DNA of 64,000 nt, taken from a bacterium. GTDB taxonomy: Bacteria > Patescibacteriota > Patescibacteriia > UBA10025. The notes under the pieces are model-generated. The model ran no database searches. It was given only the letters and a program-made list of their open reading frames with translations, and was not told where the DNA came from. The stretch is from assembly GCA_021815445.1 (NCBI GenBank), contig JAKAGM010000002.1, forward strand, positions 225,345 to 289,344. Direction: 5' to 3'. Shown here piece after piece: positions 32,760-50,501 of this stretch. The translations under genes were made by a program, and so were the position numbers. How positions within the stretch are numbered: position 1 is the first letter of the stretch; each line of letters starts with the position of its first letter.

Positions 32760-33668
32760 ATGCCTCGCCATTTACCAGAGCAAGGGATTTCACCCGGCCC
32801 AGAGTTCCGGGAAGCTGAGACGGAGCATCCCGCGCTTACCGTGTTTCTCATGCGGCACGGAGAGTCCGGCAAGGACAAATCATCTCCGACGCGCGGACTG
32901 ACTGACAAAGGCCGTGAACAGGTAGGCGAAAACTTCAACGGCCTTATCAACCAAATCATCAAAGATGAACTTCCTGAGTTCACCGACTTTGATGATCCTG
33001 AGAAACGCCAACAGGCCGCCCAAGAGGCACTGGGAAAAGTTGAAATACACTTAGCCGACTCCGAGACTGACAGAACCATGGAGCAGGCCTGGCAGGAGCG
33101 AGAAATACTCGCCAAGCTTGGTGTACCCCAGGAACGCATCTTTGTCTCACGCGCAGTGCAGGAATGGGCACGCAAGACCGGCCTTCTCGGACCTGAGGCG
33201 GCAGATCAGGGTGGCCCCGGCGTCAAAAGACGGCTTGTCGGAGTACAGGGAATGGATCAGGCGCCGGAATTCAGAAAACTCATCGACAACCCTGAGTATC
33301 AGGCGAAGGTGGGCGCAAGCGATGAAATCGGCGCATGGGCGCGTACCCCTGACGATGAAGTTCCTGCAGGCGTAGAAAAACATAGTGAGATGGAATCACG
33401 CATGGACAGTGATCTTGCAAAGGTCCAGAGAGTCACTGAAGGACGGCTTGCACATCACCAGCAGCGGGTTGTATATGTCGCTAACAGCCATGCTTCGATT
33501 ATCACATTGGCCGCGGCAAAGGAGCTCGGCATCCCCTTGGAAGAGCTTGGCCATGTGGATAATGCCGAAGGACTCCGGATGGATTTCTATGGATCCGGAA
33601 AAAAGAGAGAGGTGACGCCTTTCGGGAAAAATCTTGAGGCAAAGGCAGCAAGCTTAAAGCAGCAGTAG
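32760..33668 (+). CDS. Histidine phosphatase superfamily (PGAM-like) protein
   Basis: LMRHGESG catalytic motif, later ANSHASIITL. Confidence 0.55.
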   Translation: MPRHLPEQGISPGPEFREAETEHPALTVFLMRHGESGKDKSSPTRGLTDKGREQVGENFNGLINQIIKDELPEFTDFDDPEKRQQAAQEALGKVEIHLADSETDRTMEQAWQEREILAKLGVPQERIFVSRAVQEWARKTGLLGPEAADQGGPGVKRRLVGVQGMDQAPEFRKLIDNPEYQAKVGASDEIGAWARTPDDEVPAGVEKHSEMESRMDSDLAKVQRVTEGRLAHHQQRVVYVANSHASIITLAAAKELGIPLEELGHVDNAEGLRMDFYGSGKKREVTPFGKNLEAKAASLKQQ

Positions 33669-33687: not shown

Positions 33688-35805
33688 TTACCGAAGTTTT
33701 TTTACCGTCCCGTGATATCCATCCACTTCGATGATGTCCCCGTCTTTTATCAAAAGCGTGGATATACGAAGTCCAGTGACGCAGGGGATACCCGCTTCAC
33801 GGGCGAGAGTAGCAGGATGGGAGGTAACACCGGTGCCGCCGTCTGCGACCAAACCGGCTGATTTCTGAATCGCCGTGGAAAAGCTGGGTACCGCCTGCAC
33901 AGTGACGATAATATCGCCGGGTTTGACTTTTGACAGCTCGTCGAGGTTAATGACGAGTTTCGCGGGTCCTTTGGCGCGACCTTCGGACACCGGGGTGCCG
34001 TGCAATATCTTCCACGTCGAAGGAATCTGCAAGAGGTTTTTTTTGATATGCTGAGCTTTTTTACCTGTTGTCACGGTTATCTTGCCATGCGTCGCAGTGT
34101 ACAGCGCAAGATTGTATCTCTCGCGGAGGATGTGTGAGTAATCTCGTCCTTTCACGAGCGCCTGGTACGGTTCCTCGCGGAGACACTGACGGAGGTGGAT
34201 GAGCGGGATCGCCAGACGGCGGGAATACTCGAACAGTACGGTATCAAAGTGGTAGAGGGACAGCGAAACAAACCGCTTGCGAAACTCTTTCAGGTAGATA
34301 CCGTCGCGCATTGCCGCGAAAATTTTTCGCTCTATGGGGCGCAGATGGCACGCTCTCTCGGCAAGTGAAACTCGCTCGACGGCATCTGCGTGGAAACGCT
34401 CGATTCTTTGGATGTTCGCCTGGATATTGCCGCGCTTGAGTATGCCCTGCAAACGGAGAATAAAGTCTTTTGGCTCCCAGACCGGGTCCTCGTAGTCGCG
34501 CGTGATCCAAAAGAACTTTTTGCAGTGCGCGCGGAATTTTCGGGCGAATCCCGGATACCTACCTAAAAGTTTTTCGATTTCCTCCGGCTGTTTTTTCAGC
34601 AACTCTCTCAGCGAACTCGAAGATTGTACGTATGCGGCGAGGGTATAGAGTCCTTTTTCTTCCTCCTTAGGGTACATTGCACGCGTATTTGTCGTCAGCA
34701 TGGTGAAGTAGCGTTGGCGCTGTTCTGAGGAGGAGACTTTAAGGAACAGGAGTCCTTTGAGGTAGCTGTACAGCTGTTTTTCGACTGTCAAAATAGTAAA
34801 ATACGGGCCATACATACTTCTGTAGAGATCAGCGTACTTTTGGTAAAGAAGCGCCAAAGCTGTCGGGCTCATGTTGCGCAGGTTTTTTCTCGCTGTGTGC
34901 TGAGCGAAAGCGACGAGCTTCGTGCCCTGCTTCCTGACCCGTGCAATGATGTGCAGGAAAAATTTGGGATCATCTAAAATCTGGCCCAGGATGTTTTGAG
35001 CGGCAAGATACGCATGCTCCTTGTCGGCAAAAAACCACAACATCCGTTTTTCAAGCATCGCAGTGAGGGGGAAGTAGTGCTTGGCAATGTCAGCGGTGAT
35101 CGTTGTAACGGCTTGCAATGAAAAAACATTTGGCAATGGGCTCATGCGCTGCCGCTGGGAGAGTTCCTGCCATTCGTGATGCGGCCTCCGCCACTTCTTC
35201 CCGAGAATTCTGATGACTTCACGTTCGCACTGTTGAAATGTTTTATAGAAAATGCAATGCACGCCCATTTTTTTCGGCACGATGAGATTTTGTTCCTGGT
35301 CCTCAATAAACAGAATTTCGTCCGGCCGCACATCGAAGCGTGCACATATCCACTCCATGGTTTCTTTGCTGGCTTTTGGCAGCCGTAGTTCCTGCGTGTT
35401 TACCGCATTGTCGAAATGCATCCGAAAGTGTAGACGATCTTCTTTGTATTCGAACCACTGGATGAGGTTTTTACTCAGGATAACGCAAGGATATCCCTCG
35501 AGTCTAAGCTGCTTGACCATGTTGATTGCCGGGGGGTTAAACTGTTGTTGGTCGAGGTGCCACTGGCGCATAGCTCTCCAGTCCTGTTTCCATCCAAGCT
35601 CTTTGATCGGCCGCTGCCATCCTTCGACCTCGGAGATCTTGTTTTCGGCGATCATGTTGAAATATTTGGTATACAGAATGTCATACACCTTTTTCCAGGG
35701 AGTGTGGTGAATCCTGCCGAAATGTTTTGCCGTGCTCTTGTGATCTCCGAGGATGACAACCCCGTTGAAATCAAAAAGGATGAGTTTTATCTTAGGATGT
35801 TTCAT
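33688..35805 (-). CDS. PEP-utilizer swivel-domain paralog 1 (705 aa): HAD-like N-terminus + helical region + C-terminal phosphohistidine domain
   Basis: N-terminal LILFDFNGVV (HAD motif I-like); C-terminal GGTGVTSHPATLAREAGIPCVTG..DGDIIEVDGYHGTVKKL. Confidence 0.7.
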   Translation of the reverse strand: MKHPKIKLILFDFNGVVILGDHKSTAKHFGRIHHTPWKKVYDILYTKYFNMIAENKISEVEGWQRPIKELGWKQDWRAMRQWHLDQQQFNPPAINMVKQLRLEGYPCVILSKNLIQWFEYKEDRLHFRMHFDNAVNTQELRLPKASKETMEWICARFDVRPDEILFIEDQEQNLIVPKKMGVHCIFYKTFQQCEREVIRILGKKWRRPHHEWQELSQRQRMSPLPNVFSLQAVTTITADIAKHYFPLTAMLEKRMLWFFADKEHAYLAAQNILGQILDDPKFFLHIIARVRKQGTKLVAFAQHTARKNLRNMSPTALALLYQKYADLYRSMYGPYFTILTVEKQLYSYLKGLLFLKVSSSEQRQRYFTMLTTNTRAMYPKEEEKGLYTLAAYVQSSSSLRELLKKQPEEIEKLLGRYPGFARKFRAHCKKFFWITRDYEDPVWEPKDFILRLQGILKRGNIQANIQRIERFHADAVERVSLAERACHLRPIERKIFAAMRDGIYLKEFRKRFVSLSLYHFDTVLFEYSRRLAIPLIHLRQCLREEPYQALVKGRDYSHILRERYNLALYTATHGKITVTTGKKAQHIKKNLLQIPSTWKILHGTPVSEGRAKGPAKLVINLDELSKVKPGDIIVTVQAVPSFSTAIQKSAGLVADGGTGVTSHPATLAREAGIPCVTGLRISTLLIKDGDIIEVDGYHGTVKKLR

Positions 35806-36887
35806 AGCCTTATTACTATACCATGAGTCGCGTCAACCTCGACACGGTCGCCATCTTTGAGAACTTTTGTTGCAATTTTCGTACTTATCACGCAAGGAAT
35901 TTTTAATTCCCGGGAAACAATCGCGGCATGGCTTAGCATTCCGCCGCCTTCGTCGGTGACCAGGCCTTTGATCCGTCTCAAAAATGGTATTTGGTTAGGA
36001 TGGGTCATGGGGACGACAAGGATTGGGTTCCGCGGCCAAGAAGTTCTTCTGATTCGTTTTACCACCGTGCCGATAATTCGACCGGGTGATGTGGTCGTAC
36101 CGTGCAGTGCATTCACGCCAATGTATTTACGTCCCTCGGCAAAGTGACGTCGGATTGTGGCAAGCGCTGAATGTCCGCTTTGGATAAACTCTTTCCCGTT
36201 AACATAGAGGTATGCGTAGCCGGAAGCTCTTTTCACCAAGGTTTTCTTTGGAACGGCTAGTTTCGCTGCTGTGAGTGTTTTTCTTAGTTCAGACCGCGTC
36301 ATCATAAGGAGGAGCCGAGCAGGGACATGTATTTTTCTCCCAAAACTTTGTATCGCACGGACAATAAGTTTTTCGCATCGGGGATAAATTTCCGCGAGCT
36401 TGTTGCGTTCCACTGACAACGCGCGAAGGCCTTTTCTGGGGAAACGCGGCATATCTTCCGCGGCAAACTCCAGGTAACGCCAGAAAAGATTAAACCCGCC
36501 GATGCCTCCCATGTACCGGGGGTACTCAGCAATGACAAAGCGCAGAAATCGCTCAGGGTCAGTTTGAACGAGTAGGGAGTACTCCTCGAGTTCCTTTTCA
36601 AACCTTTTACACGCTTGAGCTGCGCGTAACCTTGTACGGCTGACCCATGCCGGGTCGCGGCGGATTCTTTGTGCAACGTTCCGAATTACGAGGTCAATAT
36701 CGTAAAACGTGTGCATTGCCCTTGCGTCTCCTAATGCGCCTGACGGGCCATAGGTGAGGTCGGAAATATTCCTGCATAAGTTTCCATAACCCTCAGCGAT
36801 GCAGCTTTCGGTGAAAAGAGGAAGCTTGCGGTACACGCCGCCTCGCAAGGAAAAGTGGTACCTGACAATTGCTGTTGAGACATCCAT
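35802..36887 (-). CDS. PEP-utilizer swivel-domain paralog 2 (361 aa)
   Basis: C-terminal TSPGRIIGTV..DEGGGMLSHAAIVSRELKIPCVISTKIATKVLKDGDRVEVDATHGIVIRL; 4-nt overlap with paralog 1. Confidence 0.7.
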   Translation of the reverse strand: MDVSTAIVRYHFSLRGGVYRKLPLFTESCIAEGYGNLCRNISDLTYGPSGALGDARAMHTFYDIDLVIRNVAQRIRRDPAWVSRTRLRAAQACKRFEKELEEYSLLVQTDPERFLRFVIAEYPRYMGGIGGFNLFWRYLEFAAEDMPRFPRKGLRALSVERNKLAEIYPRCEKLIVRAIQSFGRKIHVPARLLLMMTRSELRKTLTAAKLAVPKKTLVKRASGYAYLYVNGKEFIQSGHSALATIRRHFAEGRKYIGVNALHGTTTSPGRIIGTVVKRIRRTSWPRNPILVVPMTHPNQIPFLRRIKGLVTDEGGGMLSHAAIVSRELKIPCVISTKIATKVLKDGDRVEVDATHGIVIRL

Positions 36888-36890
36888 GTT

Positions 36891-37475
36891 TCAATCAATT
36901 AATCCAAGTTTGAGGTGTTTATTAAAGCCAGACCATTTCCATTTGGATGGATATTCGACGAGACTGTGTTTAACCGGGTTGTGGTGGATGTATTCGATAT
37001 GCCGGTTGAAGTCCGTCTGATTGCGGATTACATGGTCATGGAAGGAAGTTTGCCATATTTTATGACCATGCATCTTTTTATGATGATCAGGCTCGAAAGC
37101 CTGATCTGCGGTTAGGGAAATATGTTTTTCGGTTTGCGATTTATTCTTCCCGCCCCACCGTAGCTCATGCTTTCGAGCATGAGCAATCCCGATGCCATAA
37201 TCTTGATTGAGCATCCAGCTGAAGTTGCCCTTGATGCTTTGCATTATCTGCGAAATGTTCTTCTTTCCAATAACTGCAACCAGCAGGTGAAAATGATCCG
37301 GCATGATTACCCACGCAAAAAGGTTAATATATTTCTCCTTTACTTGGTAGTTGATACAATTCAAGAGTAGAGCCGCCTTTGTTGGATCATTAAAAATTTT
37401 GGCATTCCGAAACGTCTTGCTGGTTACAAATACATATCGGCTCTCCTCGTCATAATATCTTTTTGGACGAGGCAT
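36891..37475 (-). mobile_element. IS200/IS605-type Y1 HUH transposase (RAYT-like), 194 aa
   Basis: YVFVTSKTFRN...WVIMPDHFHLLV HUH motif and C-terminal conserved Tyr region (HHNPVKHSLV). Confidence 0.6.
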
Positions 37476-37480
37476 AATGA

Positions 37481-38701
37481 CTAAATCTTTCTCACAATCC
37501 CTTTTGTAGCATCGACCTCCACTCGATCACCGTCCTTGAGCACCTTGGTCGCAATTTTTGTACCGACAATGCAGGGAGTCTTGAGTTCACGGGCCACAAT
37601 TGCCGCGTGCGCCGTCATACCGCCCTCGTCGGTAACAATAGCGGCGGCTTTGCGAATGGCTCCCATGAGCCAAATAGTGGTCATGGGGGAAATAAGTATA
37701 TCGCCTTTTTTCATTTTTTTCTGATCCGATCGAGTAACCACAATCTTCACCGTTCCCTCGACTTTGCCCGGGTGCGCTGTCGTGCCGGCTATATGGGAAG
37801 GATGTTCCACCTGAACGGGCTCCACGTGCAGCCGGAAATACTGTCGCGCATGTTTTCCGGAGAGGACTCGCCATTTCCCACGCAGCATCTCAATGATGAA
37901 AAAATCTTTTCTGCGTTCAATCTCCTGGGGAGACAATCTGTGGCCTTTGAAATATCGGCGCAGAGAAGCCACGTCGTACCAGATGAGGTCTTTGGAAGTT
38001 TCCCGGGGAAGGAGGACATGGAGCTGGGAGATGAGCAGGGTATAGATCTGATCAGCGATCCGTTCCCCCGCCTCGTAAAAATAAGTAAACCATCGGAGGA
38101 TTTCGACAGCCTCCCTGGCGGTACCGGTGAGCTTCAATCTCCGCATAAGTCGCGTATACTCGCGTTCGGCAGCTTGATGGGTGGTGCGTATCTTTTGAAG
38201 TATCCCCGCTACCGGCTGTGGGGCAGAGAGTACCGAGAGAGCGTGGTCAACCTTGTTTGCAGGCAGTTTCCTCGCAAGGGCCGCCCGTACCTGGCGTGAG
38301 ATGGAAGGTTCACCCCAATATCCATAGAAGATTGCCCCGCGAGCGTGGGAGAGGTGCGTGAGGTATATTGAGAACGTTTTTGCAAAGTTTTTCGGCGTCA
38401 ATCGGTGTGAACGCTGGATCCGGGTCCACCGGTGCGCCGCCTCGAGGTATTGTACAATTTGCCTGGCCATGCGTTGTATTCGCACGCCAGAAAATTCCTT
38501 CGCGATAATTGCGCGCTGCCGTGCGTAATCATCCTGCAAGTAGTACAGCGAGGTAATATTCCCCTCGCCGACAATGAGCGTGTTTGAAATGGAGGCCTTG
38601 CCAATTTCTCGGATGCTTCGATGGTACGATAACACACGCAATGATCTATCAAGCAGGGTGTTTTCACGTGTGAGTTGTTTAACCCAACGCACCTTTTTCA
38701 T
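37481..38701 (-). CDS. PEP-utilizer swivel-domain paralog 3 (406 aa)
   Basis: C-terminal TAHPGKVEGTV..DEGGMTAHAAIVARELKTPCIVGTKIATKVLKDGDRVEVDATKGIVRKI. Confidence 0.7.
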   Translation of the reverse strand: MKKVRWVKQLTRENTLLDRSLRVLSYHRSIREIGKASISNTLIVGEGNITSLYYLQDDYARQRAIIAKEFSGVRIQRMARQIVQYLEAAHRWTRIQRSHRLTPKNFAKTFSIYLTHLSHARGAIFYGYWGEPSISRQVRAALARKLPANKVDHALSVLSAPQPVAGILQKIRTTHQAAEREYTRLMRRLKLTGTAREAVEILRWFTYFYEAGERIADQIYTLLISQLHVLLPRETSKDLIWYDVASLRRYFKGHRLSPQEIERRKDFFIIEMLRGKWRVLSGKHARQYFRLHVEPVQVEHPSHIAGTTAHPGKVEGTVKIVVTRSDQKKMKKGDILISPMTTIWLMGAIRKAAAIVTDEGGMTAHAAIVARELKTPCIVGTKIATKVLKDGDRVEVDATKGIVRKI

Positions 38702-40317
38702 GGTAGTTTTTTCACGATTCCTTTCGTTGCATCAACCTCCACACGGTCGCCATTTTTAAAAATGTCCGTTGCAACTTTCGTACCGATTACGCAAGGGATC
38801 TTAAACTCGCGCGAAACCACTGCGGCATGAGAAGTAATGCCTCCCTCGTTTGTCACAATTGCTCCCGCTTTACGACAGGCGGCAATAATTTCGGGACGCG
38901 TCTGCCCAGCGACTAGTACTTGCCCTTTTCGCATAGCGGCAATCTGTGGAAGGAGGGGCAGATCGTAGGTGAGTACTTTTACCCGGCCAACAAATTTACC
39001 GGGCGAGCCGACTTCGCCGTGTACTTCGTTTGACTGGTGAGCCTGCGTATGAGACTGGACGAACCGGGCGAGCCTCGTCGCCGCTCTCCCTGTGGACAAA
39101 TACAGCCGATAATCACGCATGTGGATAACATACAACGATCTACGCATTCTGATACTTTGAATGTCGGGCCTTTTCTTTTTTTGCAAAAACTGAAGCAATT
39201 CGGTTGTAAGACAGTAATGGGCATCTTCCGCCTGCAGGCCGACTCGTCGTCCGATTTCCGCATAGAGCGGCAAACTATAGTACATTCCCCGCGTCCATGT
39301 GAAACGAATCACAAAACGCAAATGAGCGTACTCCTGGAGCATGCGAAAAAGCCAGCGGTAGTGGAGAGGCAGAGGATATCGTTTTAAAAGCCGCGCATTT
39401 TCACGCTTTGTCCGAGTTTGAGCTACGCGTGTTTGACGGAGCTTTGCACTGAGCTCTGTTGTCGGTAGCCGAAGCAACGCGATGCACTTGTCCGCAACAT
39501 CATCCATCGAGTAGTCAATCAGGTTGCTATCGGCATTAATCCATGCAAACCGCTTTTGATGCCTGTTCAGAGCTTGATAAATCGTGGGAGCCACGCATTT
39601 CAGCATTTGCAAAAAACTCCCACTTTTTACACTCTTTAGCAGCTTGCGGGATCCAGAGAGTCGTCGCATCTTTATTACGAGCGCGATGAGCCCCGCATCT
39701 TCATCCTGAAACTCGAAACGCTTCACCGGCCGGGAAAGAAGCCGCAGGATCTCTTCACGTTTTTCGGCCTTCGCAATATTGACTCGTAAATAGGAACGAA
39801 TGTGTTCTTCGACCTTGCTAAAGTACCAGGGAGCTGTGGTTTGAAAACGTCCATAAACCTCTGTCAGGGCAGCGAAATAACGCTTGGCAAATGAATGTAA
39901 TGCCGTCGTGCTAAGTTCAGCCAGATTTGTTCTTTGTGCCGTGTGGATCATCGCTGCCATCTGATCCAAGACAATTCGCGTATCTCGGATGTCGGAGCTT
40001 ACAAAGCGGCGATTTGTGAAATTCCGGAACCCTGCCGACGGCATCACTTCAAGATCCTGCTCGTTCATGTACGCTTGGATTTTGTTTTTCTTCACTATGA
40101 AGTAAAAATCACGCGAGCCCGCCCCATGGATGCGTTTGTTCCATAACGTATTGCCCCACGCGGCGATCTCCGTGCGAATTATGTAATTTCGAACTTCGAA
40201 CAGCCTTTTATACAGCTGTTTCGACATATTAGACTGTCTCGATTTTTTTAGATCCTGTAGACGTATTCTCGACTCGCATACCAGATAGCGTTCCCGGGCG
40301 GGTAGCGATGCGCGCAA
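38698..40317 (-). CDS. PEP-utilizer swivel-domain paralog 4 (539 aa)
   Basis: C-terminal GSPGKFVGRV..NEGGITSHAAVVSREFKIPCVIGTKVATDIFKNGDRVEVDATKGIVKKL. Confidence 0.7.
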   Translation of the reverse strand: MRASLPARERYLVCESRIRLQDLKKSRQSNMSKQLYKRLFEVRNYIIRTEIAAWGNTLWNKRIHGAGSRDFYFIVKKNKIQAYMNEQDLEVMPSAGFRNFTNRRFVSSDIRDTRIVLDQMAAMIHTAQRTNLAELSTTALHSFAKRYFAALTEVYGRFQTTAPWYFSKVEEHIRSYLRVNIAKAEKREEILRLLSRPVKRFEFQDEDAGLIALVIKMRRLSGSRKLLKSVKSGSFLQMLKCVAPTIYQALNRHQKRFAWINADSNLIDYSMDDVADKCIALLRLPTTELSAKLRQTRVAQTRTKRENARLLKRYPLPLHYRWLFRMLQEYAHLRFVIRFTWTRGMYYSLPLYAEIGRRVGLQAEDAHYCLTTELLQFLQKKKRPDIQSIRMRRSLYVIHMRDYRLYLSTGRAATRLARFVQSHTQAHQSNEVHGEVGSPGKFVGRVKVLTYDLPLLPQIAAMRKGQVLVAGQTRPEIIAACRKAGAIVTNEGGITSHAAVVSREFKIPCVIGTKVATDIFKNGDRVEVDATKGIVKKLP

Positions 40318-40939
40318 AGTCAGCGCGTGCTAACTCGAGGATTTGATTGTCACCGAGTTGTTCGCCCTCATGCTGCATTGCCATGTCGATGAAACGGGAA
40401 AACATGCCGTGAGTAACAAATGCGGGATTCGCACGCGTCTGTGTCCGAATACGCCGCATAAACTTGAGGAAACGTTCAGCGCGCCGGTACACATCGACAA
40501 TACTTTCGTCCACGATTTTCCCGTTAAAAAGATTCTCCGTGAACATCCGGCGAACTGCCTGCCAATCAGGAGCCGCGTCGTACATCTCGCGGCTAATGCC
40601 GTCCATAGATGGATGTACTTCATGGAGCAGGTCTGTAGGTCGCAAATCAGCTGAGAGATGAGCCTCCTCGGCCAAAAGCTCCGCGGTTTGTTTCCCCCTC
40701 AAGGCAGTCGAGTGCATGATGACATTAATATCGTTCGTTTTAATTTCTCCTCGTGACAGCTTATCTTGCAAAATTTGTCGACTCGCTTCTACATCGATCG
40801 GCGGATCAATCGTTCCCTCGATATGCTGGACAGCCACCTCGTAAGGGGGTTTCTGATTCCGTTCGATCATCGCACTCAAATTCTCGATCATGCCATGACG
40901 AAGGATGTCGGCTTGCAGGGATTCACGTTCGTTTCTCAT
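40229..40939 (-). CDS. Histidine phosphatase superfamily (PGAM-like) protein
   Basis: ILRHGMIEN N-terminal catalytic motif, FVTHGMF second His motif; ORF 3' end overlaps paralog 4 start region. Confidence 0.55.
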   Translation of the reverse strand: MRNERESLQADILRHGMIENLSAMIERNQKPPYEVAVQHIEGTIDPPIDVEASRQILQDKLSRGEIKTNDINVIMHSTALRGKQTAELLAEEAHLSADLRPTDLLHEVHPSMDGISREMYDAAPDWQAVRRMFTENLFNGKIVDESIVDVYRRAERFLKFMRRIRTQTRANPAFVTHGMFSRFIDMAMQHEGEQLGDNQILELARADFARIATRPGTLSGMRVENTSTGSKKIETV

Positions 40940-40953
40940 AGATAATAGATAGT

Positions 40954-41946
40954 TTAGTTAGCCCTCCGTGCCGTGGCTCGTCTTTTTACTATACCATTAA
41001 AACCGCTGCTGTTCACAGTTTGCATGTAGCGGATGACTAGCGGAAAAAATTGCTCATGCAAACCCCTTGTTACAGCAAGTGAGATTACCCGTCTGGTATA
41101 CAGAAAGTAACATAAGAGCAGGTGACAACTCACTGCATTCACGAATCCTCGCTGTAGAAGTAACCGCTCACGCAGCGTCAATGGTCGGTACCGTTCATAC
41201 CCGGCCAGTAATGCTTTGATACGGGCAGGAACAATTTTACCATGGTGTGAACATTGGCGCTGAAGCGCCTTGCCAATCTCGAGTATATACGGACCGATGT
41301 GAGCGAAGTCAAAGTCAATAAGTCCCACCAGCCGATTACCCCGCACTAAAATATTGAGCGGTTTAGGATCAAGATGGATAGGCCCGTGGGGCAGATCAGT
41401 AGGCAACGTGCTTAATTGCGCAGCTGATCGGACTGCTAGGTACTGTTGTCGCAAATCACTGGGCAACTTCGGATACACTGTCCGGTTAAACCAGCGAATC
41501 TTTTTCGGCGTAAAAAGATGCGTCAGAGGTTCGCGGTTAGAACGGAAAGTAAACGAGCGGCCAAGACGATGCATGCGCCCGAGGAGACCGCCGAGCTGGC
41601 GCAGCAACGACAGCGACAGCGTTTGTTGGTGATGGCCAACAATATACCTAAACACGATATACGACGAACCCTGATGCCGGAGGATAGCTTGCCGGTTTGG
41701 CAAGTGAACCACCCGGGGCACCGGTAAAGGCTTGAGGTGGTCGAGGAGTCGCACTTCAAAGGCCAGTTTCCTAGATTCTCGTAGACAGCGACGAACCACA
41801 AAATGACCTTTAGGTGTCACAATCATCCAGCTGTCATTGATAAACCCCTTCTTTAAACTACGATGCGACAGCACGAGTTCGAGCCCATACTGAGATGCAA
41901 TGAATTGAAGGAGTTGCCGAGTTTTTTGTCTATTGAATGTTTCCAT
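40954..41946 (-). CDS. APH/HSK2-like phosphotransferase (protein-kinase-like fold small-molecule kinase)
   Basis: HGPIHLDPKPLNILV catalytic loop and LIDFDFAHIG (DFD) motif. Confidence 0.6.
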   Translation of the reverse strand: METFNRQKTRQLLQFIASQYGLELVLSHRSLKKGFINDSWMIVTPKGHFVVRRCLRESRKLAFEVRLLDHLKPLPVPRVVHLPNRQAILRHQGSSYIVFRYIVGHHQQTLSLSLLRQLGGLLGRMHRLGRSFTFRSNREPLTHLFTPKKIRWFNRTVYPKLPSDLRQQYLAVRSAAQLSTLPTDLPHGPIHLDPKPLNILVRGNRLVGLIDFDFAHIGPYILEIGKALQRQCSHHGKIVPARIKALLAGYERYRPLTLRERLLLQRGFVNAVSCHLLLCYFLYTRRVISLAVTRGLHEQFFPLVIRYMQTVNSSGFNGIVKRRATARRAN

Positions 41947-41956
41947 ACATGAACGA

Positions 41957-43027
41957 CTACAGTTTTTTAATCACTCCTTTTGTTGCATCCACTTCTACTC
42001 GGTCACCATCTTTAAGCACCTTTGTCGCAATTTTGGTGCCGACGACGCAAGGTATTCGCAATTCCCTAGAGACTATAGCCGCATGGCAGGTGATACCTCC
42101 TTCATCGGTAATGATAGCGCGCGCTTTTCGAATAGCAACAATACAATCCGGATCAGTCATCTGGGTCACGAGAATTTCTCCGGCTCGGAACGCGCCAACC
42201 TCTTTTTCTGAAAAAATGAGTCTCACTTTGCCCCGCAGAGGTTTGGCACGATAGGAAGGTGTCCCATGTATACCTTTACCCGTCCCTGAGGGTTCCGTAA
42301 AAAAGTAGCCATGCTTTTGGAAAAGACTAGGCATATCCCTTGTAAAAACAAGTTTTCCGTCGATGAGCACGTACCCATGTCGCCGGCGAGCGATAGCAGG
42401 GGCCGAGGGAATGATGTTTGACTTTAGCAAAGCTTCCACCTCACTTTGTAACAACAATGCTGGATCCCGGCTGATTCCGAGCTCCTTCAGCCGCAGAAGC
42501 GTGCATGCTTTGACGAAGTTTGAAAACTCTTTCATGAGCCCCTCAGAATATACCCTATTCACATACAATCTCCGGAGGACTGGGTTCGCTTTTTTTCCAT
42601 AAGTTGACTTGTATACGTCTGCCCACGGTCCGGGAAGAAAGAGAGACAGCGTATACCAAAGGTAAATATTCTCGAGAATTCCGCGCACCTGAGAATATGT
42701 TTTCCACAGGTCGTTATCTTTCAATTTCCTCCCCATGAGTTTCCGCATTCTTCGTACTTGTTTCCGGAAGCTTTGACTGGCTGCTGCGGCATAGAGACGG
42801 TGATCAGGGGGAATAGACACCACTCTTTTTTTCATTTCCTCGACATTTTTAAGCAAACGAAAAAATCTCTGACTTCTGCCGTCATATGCGGCAATTTGGT
42901 CTTTAAAATGAACGTGCAGAGACCTATTAAGAACACCGAGTATCAAAACTTTACGCCAGTAGTCGGCGAGAAAGAGTCTGTATGGCCGGGTAAAGGTTAG
43001 TGTGAGTTCGAGAGGTCGGGGTGGCAT
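41957..43027 (-). CDS. PEP-utilizer swivel-domain paralog 5 (356 aa)
   Basis: C-terminal DEGGITCHAAIVSRELRIPCVVGTKIATKVLKDGDRVEVDATKGVIKKL. Confidence 0.7.
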   Translation of the reverse strand: MPPRPLELTLTFTRPYRLFLADYWRKVLILGVLNRSLHVHFKDQIAAYDGRSQRFFRLLKNVEEMKKRVVSIPPDHRLYAAAASQSFRKQVRRMRKLMGRKLKDNDLWKTYSQVRGILENIYLWYTLSLFLPGPWADVYKSTYGKKANPVLRRLYVNRVYSEGLMKEFSNFVKACTLLRLKELGISRDPALLLQSEVEALLKSNIIPSAPAIARRRHGYVLIDGKLVFTRDMPSLFQKHGYFFTEPSGTGKGIHGTPSYRAKPLRGKVRLIFSEKEVGAFRAGEILVTQMTDPDCIVAIRKARAIITDEGGITCHAAIVSRELRIPCVVGTKIATKVLKDGDRVEVDATKGVIKKL

Positions 43028-43054
43028 ACCTTGTACTATTAAACTTCAAGCCTT

Positions 43055-44272
43055 TCAGCGTTTTTTTGCCTGCCCATATTTCTTTTGATAGGCCTCGATT
43101 CCCGCACGAAGAATTTCCATGGCCCGCTTAATCCTCTTGACGCTCAGCACGTATGCGATCCTGACTTCGTTTTTTCCTTTATTCTTCGTGGCATAAAAAC
43201 CTGCCGCGGGAGCGAGCATGACCGTCCTTCCGCTTACTTGGAAGCTCGTGAGCATCCATCTGCAAAAATGTTCTGCATCACGCACGGGGAGCGCCGTGAT
43301 GATGTAAAACGCTCCTTCGGGAGAATACAACCCCGTCCCCGGTATTTCTTGAAGTTCTTTAACTATGGTATCTCTGCGTTTACGGTATTCTCTGACTATG
43401 GGTTTGATGAACCGGGACGCGTTTTTTAATAAAGGAATAACGGCAAGCTGGCCCAGCGACGGCGATGACAGGCGGCTCTGGGCGAATTTTTCCGCACTTT
43501 CCATTACCCGTTTGTTCCTACTTGCCAGGCAACCGATTCGCGCGCCGCACAGGTTGAAGCGCTTGGAAACGCTGTCGACAAGAACCACCCTATCATGCAA
43601 CGCAGGAAAGCTCATGAAACTCGCGGCTTTTTGCTTTTGAAAAACAATCTCGCGGTACGTTTCGTCGGTGATGATAAAAAGTTTGTGGCGGAGGGCCAAT
43701 GCGGCAATGACCTGGAGCTCGCGGCGGGTAAAGACAGTCCCCGTCGGGTTTGAAGGGTTGCAGAGGATAATCGCCTTTGTCCTGCCGGAAATAGCTTTTT
43801 CTATATCCCGCGTCGGCGGCAGGTGGAAACCGTTCGAGGCGTGCAGCGTGACCGGAGTAAAAGATACGCCTGCGATGCGCCCAAAGGCCAGATAATTCGT
43901 GTACAGAGGTTCAAAAACGACAACCTTGTCACCGGGGTCTGTCACGCTGAGCAATGCAAAAAGTATGGCTTCACTGCCGCCGGTTGTGAGCATAAGGTCT
44001 TCTTCTTTTAACCTGATGCCGAGAGAACGGTAATATGATTGCCATGCGCGTATGACGTGGTGGTACCCTTTTGAAGGGGCATACGAGAGTGTCCCGTGAT
44101 CATATTTTTTCATCTCATCAAAGAATCGTTGAGGAGTGGGAAAGTCGGGCTGGCCAATGTTAAGATGGTACACCGATACGCCCCGTTTCTCCGCTGCATT
44201 TGCAAGCCCCTGGAGCTTGCGGATCGGGGAACTGGGTGTTAATCGGGCCCGTCGTGAAATCGATGGTTCCAT
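43055..44272 (-). CDS. Class I/II PLP-dependent aminotransferase
   Basis: Fold-type I pattern with PLP lysine in SVSKRFNLCGARIG; 405 aa. Confidence 0.7.
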   Translation of the reverse strand: MEPSISRRARLTPSSPIRKLQGLANAAEKRGVSVYHLNIGQPDFPTPQRFFDEMKKYDHGTLSYAPSKGYHHVIRAWQSYYRSLGIRLKEEDLMLTTGGSEAILFALLSVTDPGDKVVVFEPLYTNYLAFGRIAGVSFTPVTLHASNGFHLPPTRDIEKAISGRTKAIILCNPSNPTGTVFTRRELQVIAALALRHKLFIITDETYREIVFQKQKAASFMSFPALHDRVVLVDSVSKRFNLCGARIGCLASRNKRVMESAEKFAQSRLSSPSLGQLAVIPLLKNASRFIKPIVREYRKRRDTIVKELQEIPGTGLYSPEGAFYIITALPVRDAEHFCRWMLTSFQVSGRTVMLAPAAGFYATKNKGKNEVRIAYVLSVKRIKRAMEILRAGIEAYQKKYGQAKKR

Positions 44273-44276
44273 ACAG

Positions 44277-45896
44277 TTATCCTTTCAATTTCCTTATTAT
44301 ACCCTGTCGGGCGTCTACAATTATAGTGTCACCGTCTTTTAATACCTTTGTCGCGTACTCTGTGCCTATAATGCACGGCTTTTTCATCTCCCTCGCGACA
44401 ATTGCCGCATGGCTCGTGATGCCTCCGGCGTCAGTCACAAAGGCCGCCGCACGGTTCATGGCGGGTAAAAGGTCGGGGTTTGTCGCAATAGCCACCATAA
44501 TGTCGCCGTACTTTACCTTACGGATGTCTTTGGCTGATTCGACGATGGCTACGCGTCCGCGAACGATGCCGGGATAAGCTGTCTGGCCTTCGATATGGGA
44601 AGCATCGCCGATTGTTTTTTGCTCGACCATCCCGAGAAACTTCCGTCGGGCAGCGCGACCGGACCAGATGCGTTTTTTACCTCGGATGCACAGCCAAAAT
44701 AGCTCGCGTGACCGTCGCTTCAATTTTATCGGATCCAACCGTTTCCCGGTTCTCAGCATGCGGATTACTTCCTCAGGATCAGCGTGGTGGAGAAGTTTCC
44801 ACGGGATTCCAAAACGCCGCCCGACCTCCCTGAGCAGCTTGTCCAAGATGAAGTTTGCGCGACAGCGAACCTCAGCGCGATATGCCTTCAAATACCAAAA
44901 CTCCTGCGCCACGGTAATGATAAATTTTTCCTGCCTTGAGAATTTTAGACTTCGTACGACACGGCGCTGTTCTTTGGCCGTGACGGCGAGCTCACCCTTG
45001 AACTGGCGCGCGGCCAGAGCAGGCCGCTTCGCAGATATCAGAAAGTGACCGATGCGATCGACAAGCACTTCAGTATTCCACGCAGGTCCCTGGTAGTTGT
45101 AGGGGAGCCAGGCGTATTTTTTGAGATGCGCGCCCAGTTTTTTTTCAATCGAGGGCATCCGCTTCATCACCCGTTCAACCGCCCCGGCAGTCGGTCGGAC
45201 ACCTTTTAATTTCCCGGAAATCTCAAGCGCGATCTCATACAATCGCATCTGCTCTTCGCGATTGATGGTCATTCGAGTCGATACCATCAGGAGATTCATT
45301 AATTCCGGAACGCGCGCCTCGTGTAGGTGCGATCGGAGAAGCGTCAGCATTCGCCTGGTAAACAGCGAATGGCCGATATCGCTGGCGGGCGGGATAAGGC
45401 CGATGTCCGAAATGCGGTAGGCAAGATTTCGAAGCTCAACAAATGAATGTCGGATACTCTCAGGAGAAATCATGCCAAACGATTGGCGGGAGAGCAGGTC
45501 GCAGAGGACAAACGTTTTGGTCCCGTACTCAATTGTTTTGGTCTTTAACGTCTTAATATCAAATGTGCCGTGCCCGATCCTCGACATGATTGACGTTCCG
45601 GCGGCGTCCCACATCTTTTTAGGCACGCCCCAATATCCGTGATCGCCCTTCAGGTAAATGTACATAGTATCTACCTTTGCCCCGGCAAGCGCCCTGTGGC
45701 GACCCAGGAGGAAACCATTTACTATCAGCGACCACATTAAGAGGTTTGCGCCGGTTTCTTCTATATAGATGGGCATGCGTTCTCTCATAGTTTCTTTACT
45801 ATTCCTTTTGTCGCGTGAGATCCTTCTCCGCCTCTGGCGGATCAGGATGGACTTGGCACGATTGAGTATTTCCAAATTAACGTAGCAATTCTTCAT
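44277..45896 (-). CDS. PEP-utilizer swivel-domain paralog 6 (539 aa)
   Basis: C-terminal TAYPGIVRGRV..DAGGITSHAAIVAREMKKPCIIGTEYATKVLKDGDTIIVDARQGIIRKL. Confidence 0.7.
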   Translation of the reverse strand: MKNCYVNLEILNRAKSILIRQRRRRISRDKRNSKETMRERMPIYIEETGANLLMWSLIVNGFLLGRHRALAGAKVDTMYIYLKGDHGYWGVPKKMWDAAGTSIMSRIGHGTFDIKTLKTKTIEYGTKTFVLCDLLSRQSFGMISPESIRHSFVELRNLAYRISDIGLIPPASDIGHSLFTRRMLTLLRSHLHEARVPELMNLLMVSTRMTINREEQMRLYEIALEISGKLKGVRPTAGAVERVMKRMPSIEKKLGAHLKKYAWLPYNYQGPAWNTEVLVDRIGHFLISAKRPALAARQFKGELAVTAKEQRRVVRSLKFSRQEKFIITVAQEFWYLKAYRAEVRCRANFILDKLLREVGRRFGIPWKLLHHADPEEVIRMLRTGKRLDPIKLKRRSRELFWLCIRGKKRIWSGRAARRKFLGMVEQKTIGDASHIEGQTAYPGIVRGRVAIVESAKDIRKVKYGDIMVAIATNPDLLPAMNRAAAFVTDAGGITSHAAIVAREMKKPCIIGTEYATKVLKDGDTIIVDARQGIIRKLKG

Positions 45897-47338
45897 AACT
45901 TTCTCACAACTCCTTTACTAGCGTCCACTTCAACTCTGTCTCCATTCTTCAAGGCCTTTGTCGCAATCTTTGTTCCGATGATGCAGGGCTTTTTCATTTC
46001 ACGAGCAACTATGGCCGCATGGGAGGTAATGCCTCCCTCGTCAGTGATAAACGCAGACGCGAGCTTCATGGCAGGAACGTATTCAGGCTTAGTGCTCGTC
46101 GCGACCAAGACTTCCCCTTTTTGGAAAGAGCGCAAATTATCGACTACATTATCAAGCCGTATGATTCGCACAGTTCCTCGAACATGTCCGGGGTAAGCGG
46201 TGGCCCCTTCTATGCTATCTGACAGTAGATGCGTTTTTTGCTCGAGGTTTTGTTCACGAAGAATTTTTCTGATACTCTCCCGTGAAGTGATAACCTCCTG
46301 TTTGCCGCTGATATAGATGTAGAGGTACTCTTTTTTTCGTTTTTGAACTTCAGATGCTTTAAGCGGCCTTCGAGATTTCAAAAACATTTCCATTTCAGGA
46401 ACCGTATACGTAAGAATATCATGTAAAGCAACACCGTATCGTCGGGAGATTTCGGCGTATAACGGAACACCGAGATAGTAGCCCTCTCCGCGATACACAT
46501 CCCTTGATTGACGAAGATAGCTATAGAGATTGACAAGGCGGGCAAGCCGACGATGTGTCACCGACAGGTCTTTGATCAACACGTTAAATGACCGACGATG
46601 CAATTGAGTTTGTTTTTCATGTTTCGCGAGTCGCTTCCTCCAGTGTGTCCGCCTGGCTAACCGTGCCTGTTTCATAATATCAGCAATGGCGATGGGGTGA
46701 CTGTCAGTGAAGCGCATACCACTCCAGCGATACCTACGAAAAAATCGTTTTGCCGCCCGTTTAAGATCAGCTTCTCCGTATGCCGCAAGTTTGATGAGAT
46801 CAATTTCTTGTTGTAAGACCGGGGTCGGTCTTACTGGGGTTATGATTGCTTTCCATTCACGTTCGCGACTGGAGGCTGGGACATGAGCGAGAAGGATCTT
46901 CTGGGCGTAGGGAACGAGATGCGTCTCAATAATAGCCGGTGGCCATAAGATAGCGTTCATTTTTTGTATTGCATGCAGATAGGCCTCATATAATAGGAAA
47001 AGCTCGCGGTCAGTCACGCTGGTCCAACAAACTTGCTCAAAATGCTTGATCTCCTTGAGACCTTGCTTCGCGTACGCCACGATTCTCTCCTGGTGACTTT
47101 GAGTCCGTCGCATATCCCTGAGCGTTTCATCGAGGATTGCCTTCCCAAACTCTTGCCATTGTTTGCTGTCAATGTACCAGCTGCCGCTCATACCGCTGCC
47201 ATGCATGATGAAGTGGTCGAAGGTAACGGGGAAGAATTTTTTAATAACCCGCTCTACCCCCAGAAAGTATAAGTCAAGTTTATTAATACTAAATCTCCTC
47301 TGTAACCCTTCTCCCCATTGTATCTTTGGAATTTTCAT
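45893..47338 (-). CDS. PEP-utilizer swivel-domain paralog 7 (481 aa)
   Basis: C-terminal TAYPGHVRGTV..DEGGITSHAAIVAREMKKPCIIGTKIATKALKNGDRVEVDASKGVVRKL. Confidence 0.7.
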   Translation of the reverse strand: MKIPKIQWGEGLQRRFSINKLDLYFLGVERVIKKFFPVTFDHFIMHGSGMSGSWYIDSKQWQEFGKAILDETLRDMRRTQSHQERIVAYAKQGLKEIKHFEQVCWTSVTDRELFLLYEAYLHAIQKMNAILWPPAIIETHLVPYAQKILLAHVPASSREREWKAIITPVRPTPVLQQEIDLIKLAAYGEADLKRAAKRFFRRYRWSGMRFTDSHPIAIADIMKQARLARRTHWRKRLAKHEKQTQLHRRSFNVLIKDLSVTHRRLARLVNLYSYLRQSRDVYRGEGYYLGVPLYAEISRRYGVALHDILTYTVPEMEMFLKSRRPLKASEVQKRKKEYLYIYISGKQEVITSRESIRKILREQNLEQKTHLLSDSIEGATAYPGHVRGTVRIIRLDNVVDNLRSFQKGEVLVATSTKPEYVPAMKLASAFITDEGGITSHAAIVAREMKKPCIIGTKIATKALKNGDRVEVDASKGVVRKL

Positions 47339-48864
47339 AACTTTTTTACCAGACCTTTATTCGCATCCACTTCCACCTTGTCTCCGTCTTTGAGCACTTT
47401 CGTGGCAATTTTCGTTCCGATGACGCAGGGGATATTCAATTCCCGTGAAACAATTGCCGCATGCGACGTCACTCCGCCCTGTTCAGTGACAATTGCCGCA
47501 GCTTTTTTCATCGCTGGAACGATGTCAGGGTTGGTGGCGATTGAAACCAAGACATCTCCAGTTTTCATTTTCTTGAGATCGGCGATAACATTTATTATTC
47601 TCACATTGCCCTTAGCCTTGCCCAGGCAGGCAGTCTGGCCACTTAACTCTTTTATTTGTGCTGAATATTGTCGACTGACCTTTTTCTTCCAGGCTCTGGC
47701 CTTCGCCCCGTAAAAAAATTGATCAAATCCTTTTTCTGCGTAATAAATGCAAAAGGTCGCTCTTTTTTTAGAATCGGATCTCAGTGTATTGCTCACGCGC
47801 TCGCGTAACGAATGCATTACTTCCTCAGGCCGCAGATACCGAGTCTGAATCAGGGGAAGTTTTAAGCGGCGGCTTAATTCCGCAAAGATAAAATCCATTT
47901 TATAGGCCCAGTAAATTTGTGCGTCTCGGCGATAGGCCTTAGTTACCGCAAACTCAGCATACACATCAAAAAGTGTTTGCTCTTTTTTACTCAGCGCGAG
48001 CAGTTTTGCCAACTTTGTTTTTTCTTGCATCGCCTGGCGCCTCACTACTTCCTCTTTCTTAACTATGTTTGCCGCCAGTTCACCCGATTTCGTCAGCTTG
48101 CGTATTTCTTTTGTAATATCAGCCCGAGTATATACGCCCTGCAAACCGAACCATAAATGCTTTAGGTGGAAAAATCTCTGCAGGTGTTTTTGGACCGCTT
48201 TCTCCAGTCCTGCCGCTGGATGCTTTGCTTGTTTGAGCGCTGCCAGTCTCAGGAGTGATTCGTGCTCCTGATTAAGGATACTTTTTTCCGCAGATACCGA
48301 CATGGTTACCAGCGCTGCGCTTACCTCATCGAGCGGTAATTTTTCTCCCAAAAGAGATTTGAGGTAGCCGGTAAAATTGTTGTGAAACATGTCAACCGCG
48401 TTCGGCAGCCAGCCCCAGGTATAGAGTGTCGTGTGCAATCTGTCGAGATCAACATAGATCCGCGCTAGCCGTTCGTTTGAGAGCAGTTGAAGCGCCTGGG
48501 GTGAAATTGTACCTGCCGCGCGCTTTAACTTATCTGAATACTCTCTGATATGGGCATTCACTGTTACGCCAAAGCGAGGACTCTGTATGAGCAAGTTCAG
48601 TAGATGTTGGCCGAAGGCAAAAGAATCCTTTTCGCCGTAATAAAATTTCAAATCGCGGCCATGGTATACGCAAAGAATTTTTTTGTAATTTCTGCCGCAA
48701 GTTTTTTCCAGATCATTGACAAAAGACGTAAGCCAAATTTCCGAAAACTGGAAATCAAGCTCGGGAATGTCTTCTGCGAGCATCCAAGGGTCTGTATCAT
48801 TGAGAAATTTGGGCCGTCGTCGTGCCATACCCTTACTATACCCGTTTTTACGCAATAAAATCAA
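47335..48864 (-). CDS. PEP-utilizer swivel-domain paralog 8 (509 aa)
   Basis: C-terminal [49 protein letters not shown]. Confidence 0.7.
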   Translation of the reverse strand: [509 protein letters not shown]

Positions 48865-48902: not shown

Positions 48903-50501
48903 TTAAGAGATTTTTCGTATCACGCCGTTTGTTGCATCAACCATTACTTTGTCCCCGTCTTTCAGTATTTTATCCGCGCCCGGAACGCCGACGATGCACG
49001 GCGTACGAAGTTCCCGAGCCACAATAGCTGTGTGGCAGGTGAGTCCTCCGGATTCGCTGACGAGGGCGGCAGCTTTTTTCATGGCAGGAACGAGGTTCGG
49101 GTTCGTATTATGCGCGACGAGAATATCGCCTTTATGCATCTTTCCCATATCTTCGGGGATGTTGATGATTTTTACTGTTCCCCGCACTTTCCCGGGGCAT
49201 GCCGGTGTGCCCGACAGTTCATCAGTCTTGTGTAGGTGCAATTTCTCTTTATGGATCCGTTGAAAAAGCTTTTTGGCGCGATTGCCGCTCACGATGTTAT
49301 GACTGTGACGGTCGATATACGCGAGCGCAAAAAGCTGCCGCTGGTTGAGCTCATGGACGTTAAACTTTCTGTGGAGCAATGCGGGTACGATCTCGCTGGT
49401 CTTCATTGCCCATAGCTGGGCGATGGTGAGGCCGAGCCGCTTTCCGATTTCACGCAACAGCGGGTCGTACCCGTACATGCCATGGTAGATTGTTTCTTTC
49501 CGGAACCCTTTAATAAAGACCATCTGCTGCGCGAGATAGAGGAGTTTGCGCAGTCGCGGCGTGAGCGAAAGTTCCCCGGCGAGCACCCGCTGTGTATGCA
49601 GGAGCCGCAAGCGTTCAGCCGCCATCTTCCTCGCCATACTGCGCGGTGATGCCGCGCTGCGCATGAGCTGTTGCCACCGCTCAAGATATTCGCTCACGGG
49701 TGTCGCCGGCCCGCGGTACTGGTAATTGAGCCAGCAATATTTCCGATGGTGCGCGGTGATGGCACGGACCAATGCAGAATTTTTAACCCTGAGTTTTCCA
49801 AGTATGTGGTTGATGCGGGATGTCCTGAAGGTGTTTCGCGCGAACTGATTATCGTCTATCTTGACCGCTATGTTCAGGAAATCTTTTTCTTCGCGCGTTA
49901 TTGTGCTTTCCTGCCGGGGAGTGGTGAGGATGCTGAATACATCCGCGATGTGCCTCGGACTTCCGCACATTTTAAGATGCTGGTTGAGTTCATCCCATAT
50001 ACCTTTGGTTACGCGCTCATTTTCTGCATCAGCCAACCAGCTCACTGATGCGCCGTAGCCATTTTGCTTCCCGTGGGGAATCAGGCATGCTTTATACAGT
50101 GCGATAAGCTGATTGTCGGTTTTTTCGTTGAGTCGGCTTGTCAGTATCCGCTTTGACGCGCGCACAAAGTCTTTTGACCATCGCTCTACTTTAGCTATCC
50201 ATCGCAGGGCCCAGTCAGGATCCCGCAGCATCTTCGTGGCAAGGAAATCTGCCTGGGCGTCAAATTCTTTCCGCAGAAAGTACATCCGGCAAAAATCTCC
50301 CTCGAGGTACGAGAAGTAATGAGTGATATGGTTTCCGAGCGCCGCCTGGGGCCATTTCCATACCATGTACTCGGTCGGCTCGCTCATAAAAAAAACGCTC
50401 GTCTGAGCAACCTCAGCCGTACACGCCCATACTTGCCTGTAGGGAAGATTTTTCATAACGGTACAGATGGTATTTTCCCTCTTTTTTCGCAAAAAAGTCA
50501 A
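48903..50501 (-). CDS. PEP-utilizer swivel-domain paralog 9 (532 aa)
   Basis: C-terminal [61 protein letters not shown]. Confidence 0.7.
   Translation of the reverse strand: [532 protein letters not shown]

Follow-up and report, generated by a model that had tools for sequence, protein, structure and literature searches.

Aminotransferase, kinase and histidine phosphatase genes within a Patescibacteria swivel-domain array: probably a housekeeping enzyme and two passengers of a multi-module dikinase locus

Introduction

Do three enzyme genes that lie in the middle of a tandem array of swivel-domain genes work together with that array, or have they simply come to lie within it? The question is raised by a 64,000-nucleotide stretch of DNA from a bacterium of the Patescibacteriota (UBA10025; GenBank assembly GCA_021815445.1, contig JAKAGM010000002.1, positions 225,345 to 289,344 of the forward strand), which we call the window and to which all coordinates refer. 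Its sequence is also matched by contig DAIENG010000002.1 (359 kb) of assembly GCA_027341205.1. At positions 40229-44272, on the minus strand, the window carries an aminotransferase, a kinase of the APH fold and a histidine phosphatase. Around them lie paralogs that we number sw1 to sw8, where sw denotes a protein whose end is the mobile (swivel) domain of phosphoenolpyruvate (PEP)-utilizing enzymes (PF00391). A preliminary description of the interval read the three enzymes, with their amination, phosphorylation and dephosphorylation, as a small-molecule tailoring pathway that belongs to the array. Our results argue against this. The kinase and the phosphatase are absent from both sister arrays, four relatives of the kinase are found in unrelated contexts, and the aminotransferase appears to be a housekeeping enzyme. 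The trio is therefore probably not a conserved functional module but a housekeeping aminotransferase that lies, with two accessory passengers, inside a dikinase array.

Gene content of the interval and of the sister arrays

The three enzymes are present in the interval on the same (minus) strand as the array, as had been described. To these a fourth gene, the swivel paralog sw5, has to be added, so that the interval reads as follows.

43055-44272, minus strand, class I aminotransferase dependent on pyridoxal phosphate (PLP), 405 aa, of the PRK07568/TM1698 type (PF00155, PRK07568)
41957-43027, minus strand, swivel paralog sw5, 356 aa, a short form with its catalytic His in GGITCH (PF00391, E = 4.2e-26)
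40954-41946, minus strand, APH-fold (protein-kinase-like) kinase, 330 aa, like homoserine kinase II (PF01636)
40229-40939, minus strand, branch 1 protein of the histidine phosphatase superfamily, 236 aa, very divergent (PF00300)

These genes are part of a run of 13 co-directional genes on the minus strand, which spans positions 50456 down to 33688 in the order sw1, sw2, sw3, sw4, aminotransferase, sw5, kinase, histidine phosphatase, sw6, sw7, a REP-associated tyrosine transposase (RAYT), sw8 and a fusion of a HAD phosphatase with a swivel domain. We compared three close arrays, namely that of the window and those of two other loci, L010 and L022, with orthologs mapped by blastp. The sw4 orthologs of L010 and L022 are both 67% identical to sw4 of the window, so the two loci are about equally distant from it. 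The aminotransferase is present in two of the three arrays, and the kinase and the phosphatase are present in one. L010 has 11 swivel genes plus the fusion, in the order sw2'-x-sw4'-AT'(83%)-x-sw5'(84%)-x-x-sw8'(54%)-x-x-HADsw'(86%), where AT is the aminotransferase and the percentages are identities to the window proteins; it has no kinase, no phosphatase of the embedded type and no RAYT. L022, which has the LytB-NAGPA-HU left flank in common with the window, has six swivel genes, including sw2'', sw4'' and sw8'', and has none of the aminotransferase, kinase, embedded phosphatase and RAYT genes. In two more distant arrays, L023 and L024, none of the types of the trio was found either.

Two sister genomes were thus sufficient to tell the core genes from the passengers. 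Orthologs of sw2, sw4 and sw8 can be traced in all three loci, and those of sw5 and of the HAD-swivel fusion in the window and L010 only. There is no clear ortholog of sw6 or sw7 in the sister arrays, and the remaining paralogs match one another mainly within the swivel domain. The stretch from sw5 to sw8 that contains the kinase, the phosphatase and the RAYT has no orthologous content in the sisters. The size of the array shifts fast between relatives, with 9 swivel genes in the window, 11 in L010 and 6 in L022.

The preliminary description also took the tight packing of the genes to imply their co-transcription. The packing is indeed tight: from sw4 to the HAD-swivel gene the consecutive intergenic gaps are 4, 27, 10, 14, 1, -4, 5, 3 and -4 nt. 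The gaps of 1 to 27 nt around the aminotransferase, the kinase and the phosphatase are too tight for ordinary intergenic promoters or terminators, and together with the common strand they make co-transcription of these genes with the array plausible. A consensus scan found nothing above chance, with 17 promoter-like sites against 17.6 expected from shuffling and 24 terminator-like sites against 22.7 expected. The longest open reading frame (ORF) of sw6 (38698-40317), with a TTG as its start, shares 89 nt with the phosphatase gene; the start that was called is the ATG at 40227, 1 nt past the stop codon of the phosphatase, and this suggests that the phosphatase and sw6 are translationally coupled. 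The GC content of the kinase and phosphatase genes and their GC content at third codon positions (GC3) both fall inside the range of the array genes, so by these measures they bear no compositional mark of recent foreign origin. In a reduced Patescibacteria genome, operon-like packing of this kind is weak evidence of shared function.

The aminotransferase

That the first gene of the interval encodes a class I/II aminotransferase with its PLP-binding lysine in SVSKRF, as previously noted, was borne out by all comparisons. The protein matches PF00155 with an E value of 1.7e-51 (176 bits against a cutoff of 19.7). SVSKRF occupies residues 234-239 (window 43556-43573), with the PLP lysine at K237; NPSNPTG is found at residue 172 and DETY at residue 203, and GARIG follows downstream of the lysine. 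The protein belongs to the NCBIfam subfamily PRK07568 (NF005744), for which it scores 541.9 bits against a cutoff of 389. Its nearest solved structure is the aspartate aminotransferase of T. maritima (TM1698; PDB 2gb3), matched over the full length at 4e-105. The likeness to TM1698 and to PRK07568 thus extends to the full length, to the subfamily score and to the PLP-Lys, Asn, Asp-x-x-Tyr and Arg motifs, whereas the difference lies in the position of the gene, which in the window sits between dikinase modules.

The aminotransferase has at least 7999 homologs at E values of 1e-60 or lower, all but one of the 8000 candidates scored, and identities of 50 to 59% are spread across Patescibacteria, Bipolaricaulota, Zixiibacteriota and Ignavibacteriae. 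Among named organisms, both the aminotransferase and the swivel proteins have their closest relatives in Patescibacteria (Parcubacteria, Doudnabacteria, Kerfeldbacteria, Falkowbacteria and others). Orthologs that are 56 to 59% identical lie directly upstream of a glutamate dehydrogenase gene in four further lineages of Patescibacteria (L011/L012, L019, L020 and L021). The pair is usually preceded by thioredoxin and thioredoxin reductase genes, and in none of the four is there a swivel array near the ortholog. The window itself contains no glutamate dehydrogenase and only one copy of a PRK07568-type aminotransferase; a pattern scan with the aminotransferase of a genome contig collection that does not include the source genome gave chance matches only, at 22 to 28% identity.

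The preliminary description had named housekeeping orthologs without the array as the observation that would speak against its reading, and for the aminotransferase this is what we found: its orthologs are paired with glutamate dehydrogenase and have no array beside them. We conclude that the enzyme can be considered the general PLP transaminase of the aspartate/glutamate family in this lineage, a housekeeping ortholog, and its proposed role as an enzyme of an array pathway is not supported. The pairing with glutamate dehydrogenase is also suggestive of the specificity of the enzyme for its donor and acceptor, which may be aspartate and glutamate.

As a side observation, one of these four loci (L019) has a gene on the plus strand at 2508-2831 for a 107-aa protein that consists of a swivel domain only (PF00391, 3.3e-27). 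The aminotransferase-glutamate dehydrogenase pair follows about 4 kb downstream, and the two genes that flank this swivel gene have no Pfam match.

The kinase

For the kinase the assigned fold and motifs were also confirmed. The protein matches the APH family PF01636 with an E value of 6.5e-31 (108.4 bits against a cutoff of 23.2), and HLDPKPLNILV at residue 191 and IDFDFAHIG at residue 210 supply the catalytic loop HxDxxxxN and the metal-binding DFD. In an alignment with its 25 best relatives (A1), H191, D193, N198 and D211 are invariant or nearly so. The suggestion of an aminoglycoside-like chemistry found no support, as no NCBIfam model of an aminoglycoside-resistance APH was matched at E values of 0.01 or lower.

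The best models for the kinase are those of homoserine kinase II, SrkA and CotS. For the kinase and for all 25 of its nearest relatives the homoserine kinase II models match best (the best E value among the 26 is 3.1e-48), and the closest solved structures are the Agrobacterium homoserine kinase 2ppq (8e-12) and YihE/SrkA (1.4e-05). Homoserine kinase II (ThrB_alt) is therefore the best-scoring named family, and it has the HxDxxxxN and DFD motifs in common with our protein. However, the kinase stays far below the equivalog cutoffs of that family (TIGR00938/NF003558), with 98.1 against 271 bits (NF003558, 4.6e-28) and 66.1 against 255.9 bits, and so it is not an ortholog of homoserine kinase II.

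A word-indexed search of 5.8 billion proteins returned only the query itself. In an exhaustive HMMER search of 1.84 billion cluster representatives the best relative was 34% identical, with 6 matches below 1e-30 and 2278 below 1e-3. By these measures the kinase can be regarded as a near-orphan. A scan of metagenome contigs with a reduced kinase alignment (A2) gave six loci, of which three had usable context. One relative (L013) lies beside SMC, S16 and TrmD genes, and another (L014) beside genes for a surface protein and a nucleoside phosphorylase. The third (L015) lies with a fusion of NTP-transferase, DHQS and SDR domains, a CDP-alcohol transferase, a second nucleotidyltransferase and a radical-SAM enzyme, a context that fits a kinase that activates a small alcohol. 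The 34% identical relative itself (L025) is found in the order MgsA-kinase-EamA-VTT. None of these four contexts contains a swivel gene, a His_Phos gene or an aminotransferase gene of the present type, and the kinase family thus appears to have no recurrent tie to the arrays.

The histidine phosphatases

The third enzyme had been called PGAM-like. It does belong to branch 1 of the histidine phosphatase superfamily, with an E value of 1.7e-10 for PF00300 (His_Phos_1; 41.3 bits against a cutoff of 21.7). An identity as a cofactor-dependent phosphoglycerate mutase (PGAM/GpmB) was rejected, with a score of 18.3 bits against an equivalog cutoff of 261. The other best named NCBIfam models were missed as widely (CobC, 25 against 163 bits; PspA, 18 against 350 bits). 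The RHG motif is found at residues 14-16, outside the stretch aligned by Pfam, and was assigned by inspection; the second catalytic His lies in THG at residues 176-178. About 13 residues appear to be inserted after the RHG, as estimated from the coordinates of the Pfam match. No meaningful sequence match in the PDB was found, even at an E value of 10, none of the loci that we fetched contains a homolog, and a single-sequence AlphaFold2 model reached a pLDDT of 37.5, which makes it unusable for the fold. The protein thus resembles the branch 1 enzymes CobC, GpmB, PspA and SixA in its PF00300 score, its RHG and its second His, and differs from them in that every named subfamily is far below its cutoff and that the PDB offers no match. 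Because the catalytic motifs are present by inspection, we treat it as a phosphatase that is probably active on a phosphomonoester.

A second member of the superfamily lies on the other strand, past the end of the array.

32760-33668, plus strand, histidine phosphatase family protein, 302 aa, with RHG at residue 32 (PF00300)

Its E value for PF00300 is 1.7e-05 (25 bits against a cutoff of 21.7), it matches SixA weakly, below the cutoff of that family, and it has a positional counterpart in L022. We considered whether the embedded and the flanking phosphatase are recent paralogs and rejected this, as their similarity by blastp is not significant.

Phosphatases recur with the arrays in several forms: a HAD domain is fused to a swivel protein in the window and in L010, a stand-alone HAD gene lies between swivel genes in L024, and a His_Phos_1 gene lies beside the ATP-grasp gene in the window and in L022. 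From this recurrence, dephosphorylation would seem to belong regularly to the chemistry of the array. For the kinase and the aminotransferase there is no comparable recurrence. The embedded phosphatase could be a further, strain-specific phosphatase of this recurrent kind.

The array and its ATP-grasp partner

The remaining members of the array, and the ATP-grasp gene beside it, are the following.

48903-50456, minus strand, swivel paralog sw1 (PF00391)
47335-48828, minus strand, swivel paralog sw2 (PF00391)
45893-47338, minus strand, swivel paralog sw3 (PF00391)
44277-45776, minus strand, swivel paralog sw4, 499 aa from the called ATG, with an N-terminal domain like the rifampin-binding domain and a swivel His domain
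38698-40227, minus strand, swivel paralog sw6 (PF00391)
37481-38701, minus strand, swivel paralog sw7 (PF00391)
35802-36887, minus strand, swivel paralog sw8 (PF00391)
33688-35805, minus strand, HAD phosphatase-swivel fusion, 705 aa, with the HAD domain N-terminal; last gene of the run (PF00391, PF00702, PF13419)
30129-31145, minus strand, stand-alone ATP-grasp nucleotide-binding component (PPDK_N), 338 aa (PF01326)

The PF00391 E values of sw1, sw2 and sw3 range from 5e-26 to 2e-26. The catalytic His, in GGxT[SCA]H, is kept in all nine swivel proteins of the window, and at E values of 1e-10 or lower the family has 1688 homologs. A model of sw4 built from a 50-sequence alignment of homologs (pLDDT 93.6, pTM 0.89) matches rifampin phosphotransferase (RPH) over 417 residues, which cover the rifampin-binding and His domains. 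Likewise, positions 106-487 of the family profile align with RPH residues ~453-880, that is, with the same two domains (limits from PMC4844700), and the catalytic Arg666 of RPH (PMC4844700) aligns with an Arg300 that is nearly invariant in the family. The ATP-grasp gene, which matches PF01326 with an E value of 7.7e-95 (318 bits), is present in a single copy in the window, 2.5 kb past the last gene of the array.

In the two-component dikinases HpeHI, CreHI and PpsAB, an ATP-grasp component and a rifampin-binding-like/swivel component phosphorylate phenolic substrates by way of a phospho-His (PMC12167813). Both components are present here: the array has the RPH rifampin-binding-type domain followed by the swivel His domain, as in HpeH, and a separate PPDK_N gene encodes an HpeI-like ATP-grasp protein. 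The same pairing is found in L022 and L023. Judged by domains and gene order, the locus is a multi-module version of these dikinases. It differs from single-chain RPH in that the N-terminal ATP-grasp domain of RPH is here a separate gene for 338 aa, while a homolog with PPDK_N and swivel domains fused also exists (P0386). From HpeHI, CreHI and PpsAB it differs in having nine tandem substrate modules beside one ATP-grasp gene in a reduced Patescibacteria genome, in the fusion of one of these modules to a HAD phosphatase and in the absence of aromatic-catabolism genes. Beyond the mention of rph-like matches in genomes of the candidate phyla radiation (PMC8651080), we found no description of such arrays in the literature that we searched.

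With its RPH-like substrate domains, its swivel-His fold and the ATP-grasp gene nearby, the array very probably acts on small molecules. The preliminary description had reached the same idea by way of the three embedded enzymes; the idea holds by virtue of the RPH/HpeH-like fold and the ATP-grasp gene, and not by virtue of those enzymes. The product of 30129-31145 is presumed to be the ATP-grasp partner, like HpeI or PpsB, that all swivel modules share. The ratio of swivel to ATP-grasp genes is 9:1 in the window, 6:1 in L022 and 2:1 in L023, a Doudnabacteria locus with one ATP-grasp gene (8.8e-122 to the window copy by phmmer) and two swivel genes. In L024, the gene calls give five swivel genes and phmmer gives six ORFs.

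Discussion

According to the reading that we favor, an aminotransferase ortholog that is elsewhere paired with glutamate dehydrogenase came to lie between sw4 and sw5 in this sublineage. The kinase would transfer the gamma-phosphate of ATP to a hydroxyl of a probably small substrate, and the phosphatase would hydrolyze a phosphomonoester through a phospho-His15 intermediate. Both genes would be strain-specific additions to a hypervariable stretch between sw5 and sw8, which also holds the RAYT. In the array around them, by homology, a single ATP-grasp protein would pyrophosphorylate or phosphorylate the swivel His and so load it with the beta-phosphate of ATP (ATP -> AMP + Pi), and the swivel domain would then pass the phosphate to a hydroxyl of the substrate held in the RPH-type pocket of each module. 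What is observed, and what this reading builds on, are the domains with their catalytic residues and fold, the order of the genes and their presence or absence in the loci compared; co-transcription, the sharing of the ATP-grasp component and all substrates we infer from them.

Some points weigh against this reading, which is based on a comparison of three close arrays and four contexts of the kinase. The aminotransferase is not confined to the window but is embedded in two of the three arrays, well conserved and beside the same sw4 ortholog, and it follows the same pattern as sw5, since both are present in the window and L010 and both are missing from L022. This is compatible with a real link between the aminotransferase and sw5. 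As phosphatases recur in the arrays, the presence of one inside this array may also not be accidental.

It is possible, if unlikely, that only the aminotransferase was recruited, in the sublineage of the window and L010, and that its partners are the flanking modules sw4 and/or sw5. It might, for instance, act on a substrate with an amino or keto group ahead of the phosphorylation of that substrate; the kinase and the phosphatase would still be passengers. The adjacency of sw4 and the aminotransferase, with a gap of 4 nt in both loci, speaks for such a recruitment, and so does the conservation of the aminotransferase and sw5, which rank with the best conserved array genes and are present or missing together. 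However, this argument rests on three arrays. The aminotransferase lies well inside its housekeeping subfamily and shows no sign of divergence, neither a glutamate dehydrogenase nor a second aminotransferase is visible in the window to suggest a duplication, and Patescibacteria operons often combine unrelated genes. The idea of one tailoring or biosynthetic pathway, in which the aminotransferase, the kinase, the phosphatase and the swivel paralogs would together aminate, phosphorylate and dephosphorylate a small molecule, we consider slightly less likely still. The common strand and the short gaps are in its favor, the array modules are RPH-like small-molecule-binding proteins, in the known pathways with two-component dikinases a dephosphorylation follows later (PMC12167813), and phosphatase domains recur in related arrays. 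On the other hand, both sister arrays lack the kinase and the phosphatase and one of them lacks the aminotransferase, the orthologs of the aminotransferase are found in a housekeeping context, relatives of the kinase never adjoin swivel genes, and the run has no genes that would build a scaffold, such as those for synthases, glycosyltransferases or cyclases.

A regulatory role is very improbable. The kinase and the histidine phosphatase would then act as a pair on the swivel domains themselves, as PDRP does on the Thr by the catalytic His in pyruvate, phosphate dikinase (PPDK) or PEP synthase, or as SixA does on phospho-His. Most paralogs indeed keep a Thr at two positions ahead of the His (GGxT[SC]H), the kinase also matches the protein-kinase models SrkA/YihE and CotS, branch 1 histidine phosphatases include the phospho-His phosphatase SixA, which the second phosphatase matches weakly, and His_Phos_1 genes adjoin the ATP-grasp gene in two genomes. 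The idea is nevertheless speculative: there is no homology to PDRP, the similarities to protein kinases and to SixA are far below the family cutoffs, and the sister arrays, which lack the pair, presumably function without it. Regulation of the swivel domains can also be seen as a smaller sub-case of a wider reading, which we find doubtful, though less so than the other alternatives. One ATP-grasp subunit might charge at least nine interchangeable RPH-like modules, so that the array would be a combinatorial phosphorylation toolkit with a fast turnover among closely related Patescibacteria, and the trio would extend its chemistry, for example on the substrate of sw5. If true, such a toolkit could trap host-derived metabolites or inactivate xenobiotics.

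Taken alone, the three enzyme genes matter little: they encode divergent representatives of enzyme families that are well known, and one of them, the aminotransferase, is a housekeeping enzyme. The more valuable object is the array that hosts them. The two-component small-molecule dikinases were defined recently, in the aromatic catabolism of free-living bacteria, and the array adds to them tandem forms that are widespread in Patescibacteria. The recurrent HAD and His_Phos_1 phosphatases are better candidates for true partners of these arrays than the aminotransferase or the kinase.

Additional features of the locus

Two further genes of the window lie within the array or next to it.

36891-37475, minus strand, RAYT of the IS200-like Y1 type (NF047646, PF01797)
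31197-31679, plus strand, RapZ C-terminal domain protein, 160 aa (PF22740, 2.6e-21)

A PADLOC defense scan of the kinase, both phosphatases, sw4, the HAD-swivel fusion, PPDK_N, RapZ_C and orf213 gave no match, so a known defense system is not indicated. The RAYT scores 121 bits against a cutoff of 80 for NF047646, has an HUH-like HFH motif and is apparently intact. It is co-directional with the array and lies 3 to 5 nt from its neighbors. The HAD-swivel fusion combines a kinase-type and a phosphatase-type domain within one protein. In the space that separates the array from the ATP-grasp gene, the genes for the RapZ_C protein and the second His_Phos_1 protein run in the opposite direction, and both have positional counterparts in L022 (17606-19095). 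There the array is followed by a gene for 290 aa without a Pfam match, then by the opposite-strand His_Phos_1 and RapZ_C genes and then by the ATP-grasp gene, whose product is 81% identical to that of the window. The PPDK_N gene call of L022, at 514 aa, runs into the RapZ_C ORF of the opposite strand and has probably been extended too far.

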